A stretch of 11,126 bases of DNA from the IMG/VR virus record IMGVR_UViG_2617270938_000004. One strand, 5' to 3'. Origin of the DNA: a virus (Duplodnaviria > Heunggongvirae > Uroviricota > Caudoviricetes). A program made the translations under genes and the position numbers. Positions 2,835 through 11,126 of the stretch are shown piece after piece; position 1 is the first letter of the stretch; every line of letters starts with the position of its first letter. The notes under the pieces were generated by a model, which worked only from the letters and a program-made list of their open reading frames with translations, did no database searches and was not told where the DNA came from.

Positions 2835-3704
2835 TTATGCCTGAGTACGCAGCGCTTCAAGGCGGCGCAGGTCGAAGTCGTTCAGTTCGTCGGTGTAGTC
2901 AGCAGTGATTGGCGCTGGCCATTCACCTGTGTCGAATCCGGTTGCGATATTGCGCATCGCTTTGCGGTACTCGAGCATACCCAGCTCCAGTAGTTCAGCG
3001 GATGCCTCGATGATGGCGATCCAGTGGTAGTTCTCGTCTTTGTTGACGAAAATCCAGAAGAACTGATCCAGCGCTGCGGTTTCGCAGTACATAGCCGCGC
3101 TCAGGTGATAATCACGTTCAATAATTTCCCGGTGTAGCCTGGCGCGCAGGCTTTCCTGCTTAACATTCCACATGCTGATGGTTTTCAGGTCAGCACCGAT
3201 ACGCACGCCGTCTAGGTCGATCTCAAGGTCAGGGCGCACACGAACTTCCAGTCCCGTCTCCTCGTCAAAGCCAAAGTAGCTCACCTCAACGGCGCGGCTC
3301 GGGTGGGTTAGCAGCATGCCTGCGGTCGGGTGCGAGAGCAGTGCTGACTGAATTGCCTGCGCGGTGGCAAGTTGCTGGTGGGTAACCAGCACTTTCCCTT
3401 CCGGGTTGTTGCGCCACGCATCGAGCAGCTCGTCGGCGAACACTGCATCTGGTTTGACTGCCTTCACGGCCTGAATCAGATCGGCCTTCGTGCCAGAGAC
3501 TTTCAGCGGTTGCAGCTTCTGAGCTTCCTGCGCGACCAGGTCAGGATTGATAATCGCAAGTTGTTCGAGTAGTGCGTCGCGGCTGCCGCTGGTTTTAATC
3601 TGCGCTGGCAGGGTGGCGTTGTACTCTTTGATGCACGCCTTCATTGCTGTTGCTGTCTTCTTCTGATCTGCATCGATACGTTGGAATTCAGCTGGCAGCG
3701 CCAT
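2835..3704 (-). CDS. PD-(D/E)XK-superfamily exonuclease (RecE/YqaJ-like partner of the annealing protein)
   Basis: Motif 'VEVSYFGFDEETGLEVRVRPDLEIDLDGVRIGADLKTIS' fits the E...PD...(D/E)xK nuclease core. The gene is immediately upstream of, and co-oriented with, the RecT-like gene. Start placed at the ATG at 3704-3702 ('MALPAEFQ...'); the ORF track extends to a GTG at 3764, which would overlap the divergent GP46-like gene. Confidence 0.7.
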   Translation of the reverse strand: MALPAEFQRIDADQKKTATAMKACIKEYNATLPAQIKTSGSRDALLEQLAIINPDLVAQEAQKLQPLKVSGTKADLIQAVKAVKPDAVFADELLDAWRNNPEGKVLVTHQQLATAQAIQSALLSHPTAGMLLTHPSRAVEVSYFGFDEETGLEVRVRPDLEIDLDGVRIGADLKTISMWNVKQESLRARLHREIIERDYHLSAAMYCETAALDQFFWIFVNKDENYHWIAIIEASAELLELGMLEYRKAMRNIATGFDTGEWPAPITADYTDELNDFDLRRLEALRTQA

Positions 3705-3709
3705 ATAGT
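3681..3709 (+). promoter_or_regulatory. Candidate sigma70-like promoter (TTGGAA-N17-TATAGT) reading toward the baseplate genes
   Basis: 'ttggaa' at 3681-3686 and 'tatagt' at 3704-3709, separated by 17 nt, about 50 nt upstream of the ATG at 3759. Pattern match only. Confidence 0.2.
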
Positions 3710-3758
3710 TCTGCGCCGTTTCATCCAGGCTAACGGCGTACTGACATCTGAGAATGAT

Positions 3759-4121
3759 ATGCACACGGCCATAATTATCAGTTTGTTTACTGACGGACTG
3801 GCGCGCGCTGATGATGATTATGAAGGAACTGACCGCCGCGGCTGGTGGGGGGATCTGGACAACGACCGGAATATTGGCTCAAGGCTGTGGCTACTGCGGC
3901 GTGAAAAACTGACGCGCGAAGTGGCGATGAGAGCTGAAGATTATGCCGAAGAGGCTCTGGCCTGGATGAAGTCGGATGGTATTGCAGCAGCGATAGAGGC
4001 TCAGTCAGAGATTGTTTTCCCGAATAGGCTGAACCTCATCATCCGGTATTTGCCGCCGGCGGGGGACTGGCAGGAGTTCAAATTCTTCTGGCTATGGGAG
4101 CAACTGAATAATGCCATTTAA
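3759..4121 (+). CDS. Phage GP46-family baseplate protein (Mu gp46-like)
   Basis: 'AIIISLFTDGLARADDDYEGTDRRGWWGDLDNDRNIGSRLWLLRREKLT' matches the GP46 family signature (SLFTD...RRGWWGD...GSRLWLL). First ATG in frame is at 3759; the ORF-track start at 3681 is a TTG. The N-terminus may be shortened relative to family members. Confidence 0.7.
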   Translation: MHTAIIISLFTDGLARADDDYEGTDRRGWWGDLDNDRNIGSRLWLLRREKLTREVAMRAEDYAEEALAWMKSDGIAAAIEAQSEIVFPNRLNLIIRYLPPAGDWQEFKFFWLWEQLNNAI

Positions 4122-5259
4122 GCGGAAAACACTGAGCGAGCTCCGGCAGGAGAATCGCCAGTTTATGCAGGCAGAGCTTGAAAGTGTTGGCGCGCTGTTA
4201 CGGTTTGGCAACCTTAAGGTGCTCGCTGATATGGATGCGGGCATGGCCCATCTGCACTACGCCTACCTGGATTATATTGCCCGTCAGAGCACGCCTTTCA
4301 CCTCTACCGATGAGTGGCTTGCCGGATGGATGGCGCTAAAGCAGATTTACCGAAAAGCCGCAACGGCAGCACGCTCTCCGGCGGCGACCGTTACCGGAAC
4401 GCCGGGGAAAACACTGTCAAAAGGGGCGGTGTTAAACCGTGATGATGGTTACCAGTACACAACCGATGATGCCATAACGATAAACACTGCTGGCAGTGCG
4501 TCGGTTGCTGTAACAGCGGTTTTGCCGGATATCACAGACGATGTGACAGGAGGAGGCACTTCCGGAAATGCCGATGCTGGCACCATTCTTACACTGGATG
4601 CTAATGCCCCCGGCATAGACAGCTCGGTTACGCTGATTGAGCCCGCCACCGGCGGCGCCAACATTGAAAGTGAAGAGGATTTCCGATTACGTGGTCTGCT
4701 GGCGTATCAGAATCCCCCGCAGGGCGGGAGTGACACTGATTATAAAAGCTGGGCTTTATCCGTGTCGGGGATCACCAGGGCATGGATACGGCGCCGGGGG
4801 ATGGGGCCGGGTACCGTGGTGATTTACATCATGTGCGACGGCGATGATAAAACCAATCATGGATTCCCTGCAGGAACTGACGGTGTCTCTCAACTGGAAG
4901 AGTGGGGGGCTGTAAAAGCCACCGGGGATCAGGGGAGAGTTGCCGATTATATGTATCCGCTTGCGCCGGTTACCTCCCTTAACTATGTCTGCTCTCCCAT
5001 CGAACGCGTTATCGATTTTGAAATAAGCGGGATATCTGATGCCGACAGCGCAACGACTGCGGCCATTGCTGATGCGATTGACGGGGTATTGTTTGAATCT
5101 GCTAACCCGCTCGGCACAGGGAAAATTTACCTTTCAGATCTCAACCGTGCGATAGGGGATGTTGCCGGTACTTCAGGTTATATCCTTGTGTCGCCTTCTG
5201 CGAATATTGAGCCGGGAGTTGGGGAGCTGGCTGTTCGTGGTGAGGTGAACTACACATGA
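4111..5259 (+). CDS. Baseplate J-like protein (Mu gp47 / e14 JayE-like)
   Basis: 382-aa ORF whose start overlaps the GP46-like gene by 11 nt. Order GP46-J-DUF2313 is as in Mu-like and e14-like tail modules. Judged Baseplate_J-like by overall similarity; HMM confirmation needed. Confidence 0.8.
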   Translation: MPFKRKTLSELRQENRQFMQAELESVGALLRFGNLKVLADMDAGMAHLHYAYLDYIARQSTPFTSTDEWLAGWMALKQIYRKAATAARSPAATVTGTPGKTLSKGAVLNRDDGYQYTTDDAITINTAGSASVAVTAVLPDITDDVTGGGTSGNADAGTILTLDANAPGIDSSVTLIEPATGGANIESEEDFRLRGLLAYQNPPQGGSDTDYKSWALSVSGITRAWIRRRGMGPGTVVIYIMCDGDDKTNHGFPAGTDGVSQLEEWGAVKATGDQGRVADYMYPLAPVTSLNYVCSPIERVIDFEISGISDADSATTAAIADAIDGVLFESANPLGTGKIYLSDLNRAIGDVAGTSGYILVSPSANIEPGVGELAVRGEVNYT

Positions 5260-5930
5260 GCCTTTTCTCAACAGACGATTATCAGAAGGCACTGCAGGCG
5301 CTTATCCCCACCGGCCGAGCGTGGACACGGGATCCAAAAGCTGTTCAGGCCGCTGTACTGCGGGCCATTGCGGCCAGTTTCCAGCGAAGTGATAACGACG
5401 CACTTGCATTGCTGCGCGGTGCCTTTCCAAAAACTGCGACGATTATGCTCACCGAGTGGGAAAAAACACTCGGCTTACCTGATGATTGCTCAATTGGCGA
5501 AGTGGATACGATTGCGAAGCGTCAGTCTGCCATTGTATCGAAACTCATCAGCACCGGCGGGCAGTCAAAGAGCTATTTCATCAGTATTGCCGCAGCAATG
5601 GGTTATACGATTTCGATTAAGGAATACCGGCAGGCGCGTGCTGGCTTATCGGTATGTGGTGACGGGCTAAATGGGGATGACTGGCCATTTGTCTGGCTGG
5701 TAGAGGCAGAAGACACAACGATAACTTATGCCCGTGCAGGTCTGAGTTATTGCGGCGATCCATTACGCTCCTGGGGTAATCGCCAGCTTGAGTGCCGGAT
5801 AAATGCCCTTGCCCCCTCATACACCCTGGTGAAATTTGGCTATATCTATTTCGGTTTTAACGATGAGGGGGTTTACGAAGTCACGCCTGAGTTTGCCAGA
5901 ATATTTGATATCGCTTCCGGTTACGTTTAA
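5256..5930 (+). CDS. Phage tail protein, YmfQ/DUF2313 family (Mu gp48-like)
   Basis: 224 aa with an ATGA start/stop overlap with the upstream J-like gene (ATG 5256-5258, TGA 5257-5259). N-terminus 'MSLFSTDDYQKALQALIPTGRAWTRDP' resembles the YmfQ family. It lies directly upstream of a tail fibre gene. Confidence 0.8.
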   Translation: MSLFSTDDYQKALQALIPTGRAWTRDPKAVQAAVLRAIAASFQRSDNDALALLRGAFPKTATIMLTEWEKTLGLPDDCSIGEVDTIAKRQSAIVSKLISTGGQSKSYFISIAAAMGYTISIKEYRQARAGLSVCGDGLNGDDWPFVWLVEAEDTTITYARAGLSYCGDPLRSWGNRQLECRINALAPSYTLVKFGYIYFGFNDEGVYEVTPEFARIFDIASGYV

Positions 5931-5956: not shown

Positions 5957-6742
5957 ATGAGAAAAGTTGGCAGTACAACTGACACCGCTGATGCTAATGG
6001 TGAATACACTAATGGTAATGTCGCTAATGGTATTTCACCGACAATAATTAATGCTGAGATGATGAATACCTTTCAGCGTGAGCTGGTAAACGTTGTTGAG
6101 GGCGCGGGGCTTGAGCTTGATCCTGATGATGATTCACAGGTTCTTAAAGCGATTGGTGGCGGTCGCCTGCTTAATATTGTCACCTTTACTAAGTCAGGGA
6201 CTTACACTCCAACTAAAGGGACGAAAAGAGTGCGGGTGAAAGTTTGGGGAGCGGGGGGAGGTGGCCAGAATGCTCCAGTTAGTGTGGGCGCATCTGGAGG
6301 TTGTGCTGGTGGATTTTCGGAAGGGTTATTTAATATTTCTGATAACGAAACTATATCTGTGACGATAGGTACTGGTGGCAGTGCTGTTGCTGCTGGTGTC
6401 TCGTCTAAAGGCGGGAATGGTGGTGATACAAGGTTCGGGAGTTTAATCTCAGCTACTGGAGGGAGTGGTGGCGGGGCTACAGTTCCTGCTGGAGGTATCG
6501 GAAGTGGCGGGAACATTTTAAATATTACTGGCGGAATATCTCAAGGTGGTCTGTATTATGGTTCTGATGCTTTTATTGGCGGGGCTGGGGGATCTGCATT
6601 TTCATCAACGGGTGGCAATGGCCACTTCGGTAGTTCTGGCGATGATGGCGGTTTCCCCGGCTCAGGTGGTGCCGGGGGGAATGGTAACTATTCATCAGGA
6701 AAAGGAGCGAATGGTTTAGTTTACCTTGAAGAGTTTTCCTGA
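5957..6742 (+). CDS. Tail fibre protein with conserved N-terminal fibre domain and glycine-rich C-terminal region
   Basis: 261 aa. RBS 'GAAGG' 5 nt before the ATG. N-terminus 'GISPTIINAEMMNTFQRELVNVVEGAGLELDPDDDSQVLKAIGG' matches the conserved tail-fibre N-terminal motif seen in P2/Mu/e14-type fibres. C-terminal 170 aa is Gly-rich ('VKVWGAGGGGQN...GGSGGGATVPAGGIGSGGN...'). Codon usage is AT-rich relative to the upstream baseplate genes. Confidence 0.75.
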   Translation: MRKVGSTTDTADANGEYTNGNVANGISPTIINAEMMNTFQRELVNVVEGAGLELDPDDDSQVLKAIGGGRLLNIVTFTKSGTYTPTKGTKRVRVKVWGAGGGGQNAPVSVGASGGCAGGFSEGLFNISDNETISVTIGTGGSAVAAGVSSKGGNGGDTRFGSLISATGGSGGGATVPAGGIGSGGNILNITGGISQGGLYYGSDAFIGGAGGSAFSSTGGNGHFGSSGDDGGFPGSGGAGGNGNYSSGKGANGLVYLEEFS

Positions 6743-7812
6743 TTATTTTTGCTTTGAGCGTCCGCCCTTATTTTTGCTCTAATTTTAATTAGTGGCTTTT
6801 CTATTAATATTACACAAACGATCCCAAGTGCAATTGATATTGGGTAGCCTAATAAAAAGATGGATAAGCCACGATTTTCACCACCAATAGCAAGCCATGC
6901 TAGAAATCCACCAAAATATTGACAAAGAAAAATTGGATAGGCCAGGTCACCAAACCACTTGAGTATTTTCTCAAGATGTATGTTTGTCTTTATTTTTAAT
7001 AATACCAGGGTTGTAAACAATGCTATTACATTATTGGTGTAGTAAAGTATTATGTTGTACTGACCTAATGCATTAATTGTATATAAATGCCAATTGGTAA
7101 TAAAAATCCCGATGCAAATAAATGTTATTAAAAAAGCTTTGTGTGGAGAAAGATACATAGCTTTGAACTTTCTATGGGCAAAATAACCCAGAGAACCCAT
7201 GCTAAAAGGAAGTGTTGCAGCAAGGAATGGGAAATACGCCATATCAAAAGAATGGTGTACTACATATACGTAAGCATGATAAAGCAGTGAAAGCAGAATC
7301 GACGTAATGGCTGTAAATTTATTTCGGGCTATGAAAAGCCACAATAAAAAATAACATGTTATCTCAACACCCACTGACCATGATGATGTGACTATTCTGA
7401 ATCTATTACCATCAATAGCAAAGTGATAAATGGATGAAAAGGCACCGAATGGATTTGCTACAGCATTATCAGAAAGGAAAGCCCAGGGGAAGATTAAGAG
7501 GTTTCCTAATAAATCTCCAGGTAAGAAATTGCCTGTCCAGTTTGAGTGGAATTCCTTTGCGGATGGAATTAATTTTATAATAAGAAAGCCCATGACGAGA
7601 AAAAATATATATGCCGGGAATAACCTCAGCATTCTATTTTTCCAAAACATAGAGAAGTTGAACTTGTATGTTTCATGCAAAATGTATGTTATTAAAAAAC
7701 CACTAATAACATAGAAGCAATTCACTGCAAAGTTGCCAAGTGCAGGTATGCGAGCCGTTAAGTGAAAAGCAATGACGCACGATGCCAAAAAAAACCTTAT
7801 TAGGCCAAGCAT
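6721..7812 (-). CDS. Acyltransferase family 3 integral membrane protein (O-antigen / polysaccharide O-acetyltransferase-like, Oac/OafA-type)
   Basis: 363 aa and highly hydrophobic. Family hallmarks: 'FHLTARIPALGNFAVNCFYVISGFLITY' and 'FWKNRMLRLFPAYIFF', comparable to the 'G-x-x-GVD-x-FFV-x-SGFLIT' and 'R-x-x-R-I-x-PxY' motifs. The 3' end overlaps the convergent tail fibre gene by 22 bp. Confidence 0.85.
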   Translation of the reverse strand: MLGLIRFFLASCVIAFHLTARIPALGNFAVNCFYVISGFLITYILHETYKFNFSMFWKNRMLRLFPAYIFFLVMGFLIIKLIPSAKEFHSNWTGNFLPGDLLGNLLIFPWAFLSDNAVANPFGAFSSIYHFAIDGNRFRIVTSSWSVGVEITCYFLLWLFIARNKFTAITSILLSLLYHAYVYVVHHSFDMAYFPFLAATLPFSMGSLGYFAHRKFKAMYLSPHKAFLITFICIGIFITNWHLYTINALGQYNIILYYTNNVIALFTTLVLLKIKTNIHLEKILKWFGDLAYPIFLCQYFGGFLAWLAIGGENRGLSIFLLGYPISIALGIVCVILIEKPLIKIRAKIRADAQSKNNQENSSR

Positions 7813-8075
7813 TATTTTATCTCCGCGCCAATATCGCGCATTTTATTTATTACATTGTTAAGTTGCTCATCAGACAGAACAAGCTGAGCTGCAATATAAA
7901 ACAGTATGTGTCTTGACATTACCCTGGGGCTCTCTCCGCCAGTGTATTTCCGCCATTGGCTATCGCTGGCTACACCTGCGAGCCCTGCCATTTGGTTTCC
8001 GGAGTAATTTAGTGCGGATTTCAGTCTGGCTAAATCTTCCTGCGTTGGAGGGGTGTATTTATTTATTAAAATCAT
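7812..8075 (-). CDS. XRE-like helix-turn-helix DNA-binding protein, co-transcribed upstream of the acyltransferase
   Basis: 87 aa from the ATG at 8075-8073. 'TQEDLARLKSALNYSGNQMAGLAGVASDSQWRKYTGGE' fits a Cro/C1-type HTH. Its stop overlaps the acyltransferase start in a TAATG arrangement (7810-7814, minus strand). An 87-codon ORF in AT-rich DNA is unlikely by chance. The ORF-track start at 8099 is a GTG without RBS. Confidence 0.55.
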   Translation of the reverse strand: MILINKYTPPTQEDLARLKSALNYSGNQMAGLAGVASDSQWRKYTGGESPRVMSRHILFYIAAQLVLSDEQLNNVINKMRDIGAEIK

Positions 8076-8107
8076 TCTCTTATTTAACCGTTTAAACACG
8101 TAAGGCG

Positions 8108-8136
8108 ATGTTAGCCCTGAAGGGGCGGGGCGTCAA
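8108..8136 (-). promoter_or_regulatory. Candidate sigma70-like promoter (TTGACG-N17-TAACAT on the minus strand) for the HTH-acyltransferase operon
   Basis: Reverse complement of 8131-8136 is 'TTGACG' and of 8108-8113 is 'TAACAT', with a 17-nt spacer, about 33 nt upstream of the ATG at 8075. Pattern match only. Confidence 0.2.
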
Positions 8137-8176
8137 TCTTAATTGCTTCATTGAAAAGATGAAGACAGGAACAGGT

Positions 8177-10360
8177 ATGGACAAAAGATATAATACCGGC
8201 AATCCAAGACCTTCAAATAGCATGAAGGATCTGAATGATAACGCCCTGGCGTACGATGATTTCCTGAACAGCGAAAGAGATACTTTTATAGATCGTTTTG
8301 GTAACGCCCAGGATACGATAATTGGGGCTACTAAAAAAATGGCAGCTGCTACCGACGCTGTTATTGATGAAGCCCGCCAAAACCTGATCCCTCTGAGCAA
8401 GCAATACATGACGCTTGCTGATGCACAGGCAGATATTGCTAATATCCCCGAGGGGAGCACTACTTATTATCGCAGCCCGGATGACAGCGCCCTCGCGATC
8501 GAGGTCATGAACGTTGGCGGAACGTTGCAGCCAACCGGTCGCAGGATGATTTCTGCTGGATATGTTGACGCGCTGAGAGATTTGGTTGCCACTGAACTGG
8601 CGAAAATTATGGCTTTCGGTGCTGCTCAGACTACCGATGCATACCCAGATATTGCTGAGCTCATTCTTGATAGTGTAGGGCATGCCGTTTATCGCCGTTA
8701 TACCGATGGCACGAGCCAGTTTCCGGCATTGATGATTGGTTCAGGGATTGAGCTTGTGCAAATTGCAGGTGGAGGATTTGTCTGCCAGATGCGCGCCACT
8801 GGTGAAGAAATATTTAACATTTCTGCCCTTGGCAATCTGACACATGGCAGCCTGACCACGTGGTTTGCTGATGATGACAGTGTCAGTGACTATTCTGAAA
8901 TACATATGGACGGACAGGGGAGAATTTTTCGGCGAGTTCGCACAGATGGTACCGTGGAGCAGCTGGGCGATGACACACCTGATGATGACGCCTCTGAATT
9001 CCCAATGGTTGCTTCAGTTGATGGAAATATCATTGCGGTAGATGGCAGCGATGTAACTCAGATCACGAACGACTCCGGAGTTTCAAATATTGCGCCAGTG
9101 GCATATGCGGAATTTTTGCGTTATTTGTCGAATGTCAGCGGCAACTACATCACTTATCGATCCACTTATGACGGGAATTACCGGGCGCGAGAGTCATTGC
9201 GCTTTCTTATTCACCTGATTATAACTGGTCAGTCTCTTGCTGCAGGCGGTTCAACGCAAGCACAAAGCCCTGTAACGACAACAGCGCAGGCAGATTACGG
9301 CATACTCTCGTTTGAGACCGGCCCGAAAGTCGATTTTAAGTATGACACGCTGAATGAATCGCTCCTTGAGGCTGTCATCCCATGCCGGGAGAATGCTGGG
9401 ACGCGGCCTGGACAGGAGTCGCCATCAAGCGGTATGGCGTTTAAAATTCATGATCTCACCGGGCATACGGTTCTGGTTTCCGATGCGTGCTCATCCGGTA
9501 CTGCAATCGCAGACATTTCATCCGGTTCAGCGACTTTTACTGGTGCAACGAAAATGATTCAGTCAGCTGTAGCCATGGCTGAAAAGTTGGGTATGCAGTA
9601 TGTTCCCGTAATGGTGCTTATCCACGGCAACCAGAATGCAGCAGCAGGCACATCTATATCCAGTTATCGCGCCGCAATGGAGACTCTCCGTGCTCAGTAT
9701 GAGTCTGTCATTAACGCGGCAACAGGAAAAAGCCAGTCGCTTCACATGTTTGTAGGCCAGTTATCTAATACCATTCCATACGGCGGAACTGCCGGTTCGA
9801 CCAAAACTAATAACATCGGTATCGCACAATATCAGGAAGCCCGTGATAACGCATTAATCCATCTTGCCAGCGCACAGTATGCCCGCCCGTATTCAGACGG
9901 TGAGCATCTGACCAGCGCAGGGTATCGGACAGAAGGCGAAGTTATTGGCGCGGTGGTTGGTGGGTGGCTGAATGACAATACAAAATCCGCGCTTGTGCCG
10001 ATAGAGTCTGGTGTTGTGCAGTCAGGAACCACAATCACTATACCAGTGGCGGGTTGTGTTGGTGATCTCGTGATTGACACCTCGAGGGTTACCGATCCAG
10101 GCAACTACGGCTTTGTCCTGACCGGGGCCACAATTGCTTCGGTAGCCGTTAGCGGCAGCGGATCAGCAGCAAAAATAGTTATCACCAAGACCGATTCTAC
10201 CACTGCGACGGCGATATCTTATGCAAGCCAGGGGATTGCCGGACAAAACCCCGGCCCTGTAACCGGTTCGCGCGGGTGTATCAGAGATTCCCAAACAGGG
10301 ACGTCACTATCCGGCCTGCCTCTCTATAACGACCTTTGCGTTTTCTCCATCCAGCTTTAA
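8177..10360 (+). CDS. Putative tail fibre / tailspike-like protein with SGNH-hydrolase (sialate-O-acetylesterase-like) domain
   Basis: Start placed at the ATG at 8177 (AGGA 6 nt upstream); the ORF track begins at 8108. Catalytic-type motifs: 'LIITGQSLAAGGS' (GQS at 9227-9235, the SGNH block I serine), 'VLIHGNQNAAAG' (block III-like), 'DGEHLTSAGYRTEGE' (DxxH block V; Asp 9896-9898, His 9905-9907). No N-terminal signal peptide. C-terminal 130 aa is Thr/Ser/Gly-rich and looks beta-rich. It sits in a tail-fibre locus. Confidence 0.7.
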   Translation: MDKRYNTGNPRPSNSMKDLNDNALAYDDFLNSERDTFIDRFGNAQDTIIGATKKMAAATDAVIDEARQNLIPLSKQYMTLADAQADIANIPEGSTTYYRSPDDSALAIEVMNVGGTLQPTGRRMISAGYVDALRDLVATELAKIMAFGAAQTTDAYPDIAELILDSVGHAVYRRYTDGTSQFPALMIGSGIELVQIAGGGFVCQMRATGEEIFNISALGNLTHGSLTTWFADDDSVSDYSEIHMDGQGRIFRRVRTDGTVEQLGDDTPDDDASEFPMVASVDGNIIAVDGSDVTQITNDSGVSNIAPVAYAEFLRYLSNVSGNYITYRSTYDGNYRARESLRFLIHLIITGQSLAAGGSTQAQSPVTTTAQADYGILSFETGPKVDFKYDTLNESLLEAVIPCRENAGTRPGQESPSSGMAFKIHDLTGHTVLVSDACSSGTAIADISSGSATFTGATKMIQSAVAMAEKLGMQYVPVMVLIHGNQNAAAGTSISSYRAAMETLRAQYESVINAATGKSQSLHMFVGQLSNTIPYGGTAGSTKTNNIGIAQYQEARDNALIHLASAQYARPYSDGEHLTSAGYRTEGEVIGAVVGGWLNDNTKSALVPIESGVVQSGTTITIPVAGCVGDLVIDTSRVTDPGNYGFVLTGATIASVAVSGSGSAAKIVITKTDSTTATAISYASQGIAGQNPGPVTGSRGCIRDSQTGTSLSGLPLYNDLCVFSIQL

Positions 10361-10373
10361 AGGACTGTAAATC

Positions 10374-11126
10374 ATGACTACCCGCTTTTATATTGATAAC
10401 GGTGTGACAGCCACGCGTTACCTTGACACTTACCCTTATCCAAACGACATCACCCAACTTCCGGCTTTAATACCGGGGATTATCCTGCAGGCTGATTTTG
10501 ACGTAAAAGACACTGCATCATTAACCAGAAACCGGGTTGGAGCTGCTATGTCCGTTGTTGGCTCTCCTGTTCTTGGTGATTACGGCGTCAGCCTCACTGA
10601 GGCTAACCACCTGGATACAAACATCGACATAGCAGCATATAACGGCAGCGATCTGACAATGGTGACAATAGCTGTCCATCCAGGGGTAATTGGTGCTGTT
10701 GTGGGCCGGGTGCAGATGAACGCGCCACAGCGTACTCGTGGTACACAAACTACGGCTACAGCGTGGAGAGCTAAATGGTTGACTGCAGCAGGTGCAGCAC
10801 AACAGGCCGACCTTATCCCGTCTACTGCCGCAATTGATGGCGAAATGGCAGTCAGTCGGTTTGTGCGAGACAACGGTAGCGGATCAATGCTGACTAAGCT
10901 TGATCTGCCACGCACATCACAGTCAGCAACCCGCACCGCAGCGACGACTCCTTATGCTGTACCTTCGTCAAAAATTCTGCTGGGCGGTTCTGTCGAGGGA
11001 GCCACGACTGCCACTATCTTCATGCGGGCATGCCTGATTGTATCTAGGGCAATAACGGATGTTGAAATGGCAACTATTTACACCTATTACAAAAATTATT
11101 ATCAGCTGAAAGGCAAAAACATTTAA
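10374..11126 (+). CDS. LamG-like (concanavalin A-like lectin fold) domain protein, putative carbohydrate-binding tail accessory protein
   Basis: 250 aa. RBS 'AGGA' 9 nt upstream, immediately after the esterase stop. C-terminal 'ILLGGSVEGATTATIFMRACLIVSRAITDVEMATIYTYYKNY' resembles the LamG/Laminin_G_3 terminal motif (iG....F.G.IDEvRiYnRALs..Ei..lY). Assignment by motif only. Confidence 0.5.
   Translation: MTTRFYIDNGVTATRYLDTYPYPNDITQLPALIPGIILQADFDVKDTASLTRNRVGAAMSVVGSPVLGDYGVSLTEANHLDTNIDIAAYNGSDLTMVTIAVHPGVIGAVVGRVQMNAPQRTRGTQTTATAWRAKWLTAAGAAQQADLIPSTAAIDGEMAVSRFVRDNGSGSMLTKLDLPRTSQSATRTAATTPYAVPSSKILLGGSVEGATTATIFMRACLIVSRAITDVEMATIYTYYKNYYQLKGKNI

Follow-up and report, generated by a model that had tools for sequence, protein, structure and literature searches.

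Positions 6721–8136 of the 11,126-nucleotide (nt) stretch of viral DNA analyzed here (IMG/VR record IMGVR_UViG_2617270938_000004, hereafter the window) probably form a lysogenic-conversion cassette of a now-defective Escherichia coli prophage of the Mu-tail type, similar to Serratia phage vB_SspM_BZS1 (BZS1). The cassette encodes an 87-amino-acid (aa) XRE-type helix-turn-helix (HTH) protein, which would repress its own promoter, followed by a 363-aa AT3 acyltransferase. Lysogenic-conversion morons are an already known kind of element, whereas a cassette led by a regulator has barely been described. What is new here is the family-wide picture of a platform, the range of cargo exchanged on it, the exchange of cargo together with the tip of a tail fiber, and the covariation between the HTH protein and its candidate operator. 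The cassette consists of the following features.

8108–8136, minus strand: sigma-70-type promoter found by consensus scan, with −35 TTGACG (8136–8131), a 17-nt spacer, and −10 TAACAT (8113–8108).
8113–8127, minus strand: 6-3-6 palindrome CGCCCC-TTC-AGGGCT, imperfect, lying within the promoter spacer and probably serving as the operator of an HTH dimer.
8076–8107, minus strand: short 5′ leader, assigned by sequence comparison; a weak ribosome-binding site, AAGAGA, precedes the ATG of the HTH gene.
7812–8075, minus strand: gene for the 87-aa XRE-type HTH protein (MILINKY...), with its ATG at 8075; the open reading frame (ORF) itself spans 7812–8099.
7810–7814, minus strand: TAATG stop/start overlap, in which the HTH stop TAA (7814–7812) and the acyltransferase ATG (7812–7810) share base 7812.
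6721–7812, minus strand: gene for the 363-aa AT3 acyltransferase (ATG 7812–7810, stop 6723–6721).

The original prediction described an AT-rich gene pair that runs opposite to the surrounding tail genes and is joined through a TAATG overlap, and each of these points is confirmed. The GC content is 0.33–0.38 across 6800–7800 and ∼0.40–0.43 in the HTH gene, versus ∼0.50–0.56 in the flanks, and the tail genes that flank the pair (a Gly-rich fiber gene at 5957–6742 and a spike gene from 8177) lie on the opposite strand. The last 22 nt of the Gly-rich fiber gene overlap the 3′ end of the acyltransferase gene. The overlap between the cassette genes can be read directly in the sequence, and in 18 of 30 distinct AT3-carrying cassettes of the same family the AT3 start overlaps the HTH stop by 1, 4, 11, or 35 nt. 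Thus, the TAATG of the window is a family trait, and it may couple translation of the two genes. The start methionine of the 87-aa protein is common to all 34 aligned homologues, which supports the ATG at 8075. A missing or disrupted 87-aa ORF in close homologues would have spoken against the prediction; instead, both ORFs are intact in all six E. coli relatives examined, which cover the range down to 98.6% DNA identity. The RefSeq annotation of the 87-aa gene is inconsistent: E. coli HS has none, ECCTRSRTH03 has a truncated gene call, and in W21 the product is named “transcriptional regulator.” Among NC_009800, NZ_CP147032, NZ_CM184352, and NZ_CP041110 the gene is either unannotated or called as a 59-aa fragment, and the ORF is intact in all of them.

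We applied the Pfam, NCBIfam, PHROG, PADLOC, and Rfam family libraries to the proteins and DNA of the window. The 87-aa protein is confidently predicted to have an XRE-type HTH fold of five helices, and it matches phrog_20491, a family of unknown function, at E 3.3e-30. The XRE-like assignment of the original prediction is therefore upheld by fold and family, although not by the Pfam models discussed below. The closest solved relatives of the predicted fold are the autorepressors Aca10 and AcrIF24. AcrIF24 is also the top match by sequence in the PDB, at a nonsignificant level (E 0.19 with a profile and 1.9 with a single sequence), and HigA-type antitoxins and restriction-modification C proteins are among the structural neighbors. 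The HTH family comprises 194 clusters at 90% identity, mostly of 86–90 aa and carrying source names such as “XRE family” or “helix-turn-helix”; an exhaustive search returned 146 representatives at 50% identity, and a relative is encoded on 244 viral contigs. Its hosts are Enterobacterales, Pseudomonas, and many Burkholderiales, and its carriers are temperate phages. Synonymous sites within the family are saturated (pS ∼0.75–0.97) while pN is ∼0.09–0.24, which indicates purifying selection on the HTH gene.

The 363-aa protein belongs to the Acyl_transf_3 family, as first proposed: it scores 56.3 bits against Pfam PF01757 (cut-off 31), with residues 4–337 aligned to positions 6–324 of the 326-position profile, and it also matches phrog_3333, annotated as O-acetyltransferase. 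The protein is AT3 only, with no fused SGNH domain. By eye, its translation carries near the N terminus IRFFLASCVIAFH (R6-x10-H17), CFYVISGF, and NRMLRLFP. These correspond to the signature motifs of AT3 proteins, namely R-x10-H within the first helix, F-F/Y-x-I-S-G, and a motif of the RxxR type. The enzyme most likely O-acylates lipopolysaccharide (LPS) or another surface glycan.

The proposal that the cassette has a promoter of its own now has support from three sides: the consensus scan, alignment with related cassettes, and a comparison with control regions. The window promoter, TTGACG-CCC-CGCCCC-TTC-AGGGCT-AACAT, corresponds position by position to the promoter conserved among related cassettes, the canonical form of which is TTGACA-GAT-AGCACC-AAA-GGGGCT-ATTAT. 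The consensus of the candidate operator site is TAGCACCAAAGGGGCTA, and a one-mismatch match to GCCCCNNNGGGGC at 8114–8126 is homologous in position to the family palindrome. Taken singly, these elements are inconspicuous in the window. The consensus scan gave four promoter-like matches in 2.1 kb, no more than shuffled sequences did; the palindrome alone gave a single, nonsignificant match, with no second operator-like site in the window; and an inverted-repeat search with a 6-base seed did not pick up the imperfect palindrome. The combined architecture was sought in the 450 nt upstream of HTH genes as a −35 hexamer followed by a 6-3-6 palindrome that ends at the −10 and has no more than one mismatch. 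It is present in 105 of 170 distinct loci, versus 1 of 170 downstream regions of equal length that served as controls. When viral contigs were scanned for TAGCACCNNNGGGGCTA, 80 loci matched. Every match with a correctly spaced −35 (21 of 21) has an HTH gene within 600 nt, and the 58 matches that lack an HTH gene also lack a −35, as expected for chance 14-base matches; one further match has the HTH gene and no recognizable −35.

The palindrome also varies in step with the protein. Its arms change symmetrically across the family (AGCCCC/GGGGCT, AGGCCC/GGGCCT, AGACCC/GGGTCT, and GTTCCC/GGGAAC), and the third arm base tracks HTH residues 38–39, with NS, GQ, or NN accompanying C, GR accompanying G, and DH accompanying A. 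Residues 38–39 stand where the recognition helix begins, directly ahead of the invariant QWRKY in helix 3. All three classes are present within the single genus Cupriavidus (L055 and L078, L061, and L070, where L-numbers designate neighborhoods of HTH homologues), so host phylogeny alone is insufficient to explain the pattern. Since the palindrome lies in the nontranscribed spacer, RNA structure does not account for it either. From these sequence patterns, the palindrome is probably an autoregulatory operator to which the HTH protein would bind.

We propose the following mechanism. The near-consensus sigma-70 promoter at 8136–8108 would drive a bicistronic mRNA, with the HTH gene first and the AT3 gene second and translationally coupled to it via TAATG. 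The AT3 enzyme would O-acylate LPS or another surface glycan, and so alter the receptor seen by phages and antibodies. Meanwhile, an HTH dimer would bind the spacer palindrome at 8127–8113 and repress its own promoter, as Aca proteins and C proteins do. We propose negative autoregulation because a dimeric XRE protein placed between the −35 and −10 of a near-consensus promoter is expected to repress it. Such an arrangement would allow rapid expression from a strong promoter upon entry, after which the amount of the polytopic membrane enzyme would be steady and limited in the lysogen. The analysis shows the gene structure, the predicted folds, the family membership and recurrence of the cassette, the exchange of its cargo, and the covariation of palindrome and protein; that the HTH protein binds DNA, that it represses rather than activates, that the cassette is expressed in the lysogen, and what the enzyme acylates are inferred.

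Related cassettes place the window copy in a broader context. We took a census of 92 distinct Enterobacterales-type loci, counting as cargo any ORF that starts within −60 to +150 nt of the HTH stop. A cargo ORF is present in 59 of these loci, and in 30 cases it encodes an AT3 acyltransferase and in 12 a hexapeptide (LbH) acetyltransferase. Other census cargo includes a WaaZ-type KDO transferase (WaaZ_KDO_III, in Citrobacter braakii), a Wzy_C protein, and a phrog_1962 glycosyltransferase (in Salmonella); a DUF1796/DUF4214 protein, a T5orf172 protein, and several proteins without a family assignment were also found as cargo. Outside the census, the HTH gene is followed by a GT25 LPS glycosyltransferase in L156, where the flank was too short for inclusion, and by an SGNH hydrolase in Burkholderia phage phiE131. 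The neighborhood survey that the original prediction called for therefore shows the HTH-then-acyltransferase order recurring in many genera. It does not bear out the idea of an HTH protein dedicated to the acyltransferase, since in related cassettes the downstream enzyme varies behind a constant HTH.

The canonical cassette consists, in order, of the promoter, a hairpin leader of ∼45 nt, a gene for a 57-aa protein, a terminator-like hairpin, the HTH gene, and often cargo. Family cassettes are antisense and usually located where a P2-like or Mu-tail-type prophage ends, converging on genes for tail fibers or fiber assembly; convergent cassettes were seen in E. coli, Salmonella, Citrobacter, and Serratia phage BZS1. 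One cassette lies between Q and the holin gene of a lambdoid prophage in Klebsiella; others stand beside integrases or at P2-like fiber ends. The 57-aa gene, ∼37–44 nt upstream of the HTH gene, is present in 70 of the 92 loci and absent from 22. Its product (phrog_6330) has an N-terminal coiled coil and a C-terminal membrane anchor (e.g., L104 3790–3960 and L191 4290–4463, the latter BZS1 p26), and it matches no Pfam family, known toxin families included. The window has no match to the 57-aa protein and contains neither the structured leader nor the terminator-like hairpin. Together with a close relative, L095, it represents a short variant in which 32 nt separate the promoter from the HTH ATG and a short leader replaces the long leader and the 57-aa gene. 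Further variants without the 57-aa gene have different leaders (L003, L148, L151, L158/L163, and L202/L242) and keep the promoter and palindrome directly before the HTH gene. Thus, promoter, palindrome, and HTH gene constitute the invariant core of the family.

Several observations concern the canonical form. The conserved leader hairpin reads GGUAGCG-N...N′-CGCAGCC and is followed by CCCGAAAGGAAG (e.g., L104 3708–3790, L083 7705–7787, and L191 at about 4205–4290). The N-N′ pair occurs in three compensatory types (C-G in nine cases, A-U in seven, and G-C in seven), and Rfam has no family for this leader. The terminator-like hairpin, AGCCCC-GAAA-GGGGCT followed by a T run, occupies the ∼37- to 44-nt spacer between the 57-aa and HTH genes (L104 3961–4000). 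Its arms share their core sequence with the promoter palindrome, and it could be an attenuator, a second operator, or both. In C. braakii (L089–L094), a cassette consisting of the HTH gene and a WaaZ-like gene, with the 57-aa gene interrupted by a stop codon, is fixed beside remnants of tail-fiber-assembly genes. The other side of this cassette differs by strain, carrying a CP4-57-like element, a P2 tail module, or islands with Thoeris-like SIR2/TIR or Hachiman-like genes; this variability points to an integration hot spot.

Exchange of cargo can be followed at the nucleotide level among close relatives of the window. An identical 87-aa HTH protein and promoter precede a 355-aa AT3 protein only 48% identical to the window enzyme (L317–L319), and a 95%-identical HTH protein precedes a DUF1796 protein (L122). 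At the DNA level, L317 and L122 match the window from the N terminus of the tail spike through the HTH gene; the homology breaks at 7615 (L317) or 7824 (L122) and returns only at 6227 and 6264, respectively, inside the convergent Gly-rich fiber gene. In these two comparisons, therefore, the exchanged block consists of the cargo and the C-terminal part of the Gly-rich fiber, from about 6228–6265 onward, which suggests that receptor recognition and receptor modification may be inherited as one block. The divergent spike behaves differently. Its N-terminal part of ∼120 aa (to about 8540) is conserved, whereas its distal part differs among near-identical E. coli prophages (L001, L002, and L107–L110), and spikes beside a >99%-identical cassette are called SGNH (sialate O-acetylesterase), TolB-like, or CotH-like by RefSeq. 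Because the coexchanged fiber is the one at 5957–6742 and the spike varies independently, we rejected a functional match between the acyltransferase and an esterase spike, as proposed for BZS1.

Beyond the window, we tentatively suggest that the promoter, operator, and HTH gene may form a portable, self-limiting platform in at least two proteobacterial classes, into which glycan enzymes of unrelated folds are plugged. In E. coli, the enzyme and the distal part of the convergent fiber would be swapped together, and cassettes resident in the same cell would cross-regulate each other, since the operators of different cassettes are nearly identical. We regard this broader proposal as possible rather than likely.

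Several points weigh against autorepressed lysogenic conversion as the function of the window cassette. First, DNA binding and repression by the HTH protein are read from sequence, and the Pfam HTH models score below threshold (the best, HTH_31, at E 0.041 and 14.6 bits against a cut-off of 27). Second, the window copy is atypical. Its HTH protein differs from the consensus of the family at several positions that are otherwise almost invariant (R2I, T25S, D31G, and N38D), and its palindrome is degenerate, with four of six arm positions symmetric. Given these departures, D38 among them, regulation in the window may be weak or different. Third, the covariation between arms and residues is partly confounded by shared clade ancestry. 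Fourth, no characterized close relative of the acyltransferase was found in the phage collection, among solved structures, or among its homologues. In the phage collection, no named phage acetylase matched at E 1e-5, and the only matches were a hypothetical protein of a Vibrio phage and an unannotated record. No relative of solved structure was found, and all 81 homologues are uncharacterized “acyltransferase family protein” entries. No close homology to a demonstrated O-antigen acylase was therefore seen that would place the enzyme among Oac/OafA-type proteins. In addition, AT3 homologues act as single-gene morons without an HTH gene in Pantoea and Sodalis, so the regulator is dispensable for the enzyme. 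Finally, 28 distinct loci contain the 57-aa and HTH genes without cargo, and this pair may have a function of its own, unrelated to cargo.

The last point leads to the alternative that survives best, which we nonetheless consider unlikely. The HTH protein would be the partner of the 57-aa membrane protein, as its antitoxin, immunity factor, or dedicated regulator, in a two-gene addiction or exclusion module; the enzymes would hitch-hike on the promoter, and the window copy would be an orphan left after loss of the 57-aa gene. The prevalence of the 57-aa gene ∼37–44 nt upstream of the HTH gene (70 of 92 loci) fits this idea, as do the cargo-free pairs, including the one between Q and holin in the Klebsiella prophage, and the HigA-type antitoxins among the structural neighbors of the HTH protein. 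So do the substitutions at conserved positions in the HTH proteins of the window and L095, which are under somewhat relaxed constraint (dN/dS 0.27). However, the constant unit is the promoter-palindrome with the HTH gene: at least seven variants without the 57-aa gene keep the HTH gene, the promoter, and cargo. In C. braakii, the 57-aa gene is a pseudogene in many genomes in which the HTH and WaaZ-like genes are intact. Moreover, the 57-aa protein has no Pfam toxin match, and the HTH, AT3, and spike proteins have no PADLOC match. A partner or antitoxin role would still be compatible with autoregulation, since antitoxins autoregulate too. A HigBA toxin-antitoxin pair, suggested by an upstream ORF of ∼85–100 aa in Pseudomonas and Burkholderia, was discarded because that ORF is an over-extended call of the 57-aa gene.

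We think it still less probable that the HTH protein acts mainly in trans on outside targets, such as host surface-polysaccharide genes, the divergent spike gene, or coresident cassettes, and that its position beside the acyltransferase reflects a joint conversion function. Conversion by phage epsilon15 is classically reported to include repression of a host acetylase, which fits this reading. The HTH protein is very strongly conserved across genera while its surroundings change, and the promoter region in the window is common to the divergent spike gene (ATG 8177). Three cassettes coexist in the genome of Serratia proteamaculans 336X (PMC7556043), where cross-talk between near-identical operators is plausible. 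Against this, the palindrome with a correctly spaced −35 occurs only beside the HTH gene (21 of 21 in the scanned sample), the window holds just one operator-like site, and the cassette is also found in settings without a divergent tail gene, at P2-like fiber ends, between Q and holin, and beside integrases. That the 87-aa ORF is a nonfunctional leftover or a chance ORF, with the acyltransferase expressed alone like Sf6 oac, is scarcely credible: the ORF lacks a RefSeq annotation in E. coli HS and other strains, Pfam gives no significant match, and AT3 homologues without the HTH gene exist, but the ORF is intact in six of six relatives and belongs to a 194-cluster family of mostly 86–90 aa, and purifying selection (saturated synonymous sites, pN ∼0.09–0.24), a confident fold, and a family-wide start codon contradict the idea.

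An autorepressed conversion cassette in the window would reside in a prophage that has itself decayed. The segment 6500–8400 is found at 98.6–99.9% identity in 32 of 5,426 complete E. coli genomes, chromosomal every time, and megablast against the phage collection gave no match; on these searches, the element that contains the cassette is known solely from prophages and IMG/VR contigs. The remaining features of the window are as follows.

1–1194: P4-type integrase.
1191–1433: 80-aa ORF.
1430–1672: 80-aa ORF, whose counterpart in strain 22F46 is annotated DUF4060.
1711–2829: RecT.
2835–3764, minus strand: PD-(D/E)XK exonuclease.
3681–5930: Mu-type baseplate genes GP46, Baseplate_J, and gp48/YmfQ; the GP46 ORF is 3681–4121, plus strand.
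5957–6742, plus strand: Gly-rich tail fiber (Pfam Gly_rich_2), convergent to the cassette.
8177–10360, plus strand: tail spike or fiber (phrog_4201, tail fiber), divergent from the cassette, with a conserved N-terminal anchor; start as in RefSeq relatives.

From 3731 to its end, the window is 99.9% identical to the apparently complete prophage of strain 20KM2222 (L109), whereas the sequence to the left of 3731 is unrelated. This switch in homology at 3730/3731 means that an early region (integrase, RecT, and exonuclease) is joined to codon 20 of GP46, and that the prophage is a defective remnant; to judge by the junction, the fusion is the product of deletion or recombination. The exonuclease ORF (2835–3764) and the GP46 ORF (3681–4121), on opposite strands, overlap by 84 nt (3681–3764). 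All head genes and most tail genes are absent. Strain 22F46 (L108) has a related deletion, larger than that of the window. Both cassette genes are intact in such decayed prophages. The divergent intergenic region measures 101 bp, from the HTH ATG (8075) to the spike start (8177). A spike start at ATG 8108 was rejected in favor of 8177, which RefSeq relatives and homologues support, and an antisense ORF at 8092–8460 was likewise set aside as spurious-looking. The C-terminal domain of the spike, a neighbor outside the cassette, is annotated SGNH/sialate O-acetylesterase. An ORF that starts at 10374 and is cut by the window end (11126) matches phrog_4390, a family of unknown function, and corresponds in position to BZS1 p28, whose annotation is virion-associated protein. 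NCBIfam gave zero matches for the five window proteins tested. In the window, Rfam gave no match at E up to 1; in three related loci its matches were limited to a neighboring tmRNA. PADLOC gave no match at E up to 1 for the HTH, AT3, or spike proteins, and a reading of the cassette as a defense system was dropped on this result.

Phage-encoded modification of O antigen and LPS changes serotype, vaccine epitopes, and phage susceptibility. To our knowledge, little has been established about how the expression of conversion genes is controlled, beyond the phase-variable gtr operons. If our proposal is correct, a single regulator and operator would provide a common handle on unrelated conversion enzymes in prophages of Escherichia, Salmonella, Klebsiella, Citrobacter, Serratia, Pseudomonas, and Burkholderia, and the HTH gene with its promoter motif could be used as a search key for uncharacterized surface-modifying genes. 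The coexchange of cargo and fiber tip suggests that cassettes record the phage receptor, which would be useful for predicting host range and superinfection exclusion. The persistence of an intact cassette in decayed prophages suggests a benefit to the host.

The closest known counterpart is BZS1 (Int J Mol Sci 2020), in which a membrane protein (p26), an HTH protein (p25), and an AT3 protein (p24) are encoded between a tail fiber and an esterase-type fiber (PMC7556043). Its authors noted three similar pairs of HTH and transmembrane proteins beside different acetyltransferases in S. proteamaculans, suggested cooperation between them, and had no clue to their role (PMC7556043). In the literature we found only this paper describing such an arrangement; the Hf4s preprint contributed nothing. 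The original prediction did not recognize the gene order as standard; the order had already been mentioned for BZS1 p24–p26, with no function assigned (PMC7556043). In both BZS1 and the window, the cassette occupies the same position in the tail module (Mu gp45–48 baseplate genes, tail fiber, antisense cassette, esterase-type fiber). BZS1 p25 is 67% identical to the window HTH protein, the cargo is an AT3 protein in both, and the esterase-type fiber p27 is similar to the window spike. In contrast, BZS1 has p26 (the 57-aa protein), the long structured leader, and the terminator-like hairpin, all of which the window lacks, and the two AT3 proteins have no detectable similarity beyond family motifs.

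With the single-gene O-antigen acetylase morons of serotype-converting phages (Sf6 oac and the AT3 proteins OafA/OafB) the cassette shares a phage-borne AT3 enzyme, a high AT content, an orientation antisense to structural genes, and a location near the tail or integrase end. The outcome to be expected is O-acylation of a surface glycan together with altered phage adsorption (Sf6 background as cited in PMC7556043). The known acetylase genes are solitary or, in Salmonella, reportedly phase-variable, whereas the window AT3 gene is second behind a conserved regulator and a candidate operator; OafA and OafB also carry a fused SGNH domain that the window enzyme lacks. The case of SEN1990 and oafB (PMC10655114) involves a winged-helix protein that is unrelated and has its gene elsewhere.

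C proteins and HigA would resemble the 87-aa protein as small XRE-type HTH proteins that autoregulate a short operon with a potentially harmful product. They differ in context: no restriction-modification genes and no RelE/HigB-type toxin lie beside the HTH gene, its upstream partner, where present, is the 57-aa anchor protein, and the upstream neighbor in the window is the divergent spike gene.

The likeness to Aca proteins (Aca10, Aca1, Aca2, and the HTH domain of AcrIF24) lies in a small, here presumably dimeric XRE-type HTH protein encoded in a short operon with a phage accessory gene. Aca proteins bind inverted repeats that overlap a strong promoter and thereby cap its output. The 87-aa protein differs in that its similarity to them is not significant (E 0.19), it belongs to no defined Aca family, and its gene comes first in the operon rather than last. 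No adjacent anti-CRISPR gene was found in these cassettes; the downstream genes encode surface-glycan enzymes instead (AT3, hexapeptide, glycosyltransferase, WaaZ-like, and Wzy-like). Nevertheless, the anatomy of the HTH protein and its promoter suggests that an Aca-like logic may govern the expression of these conversion enzymes.

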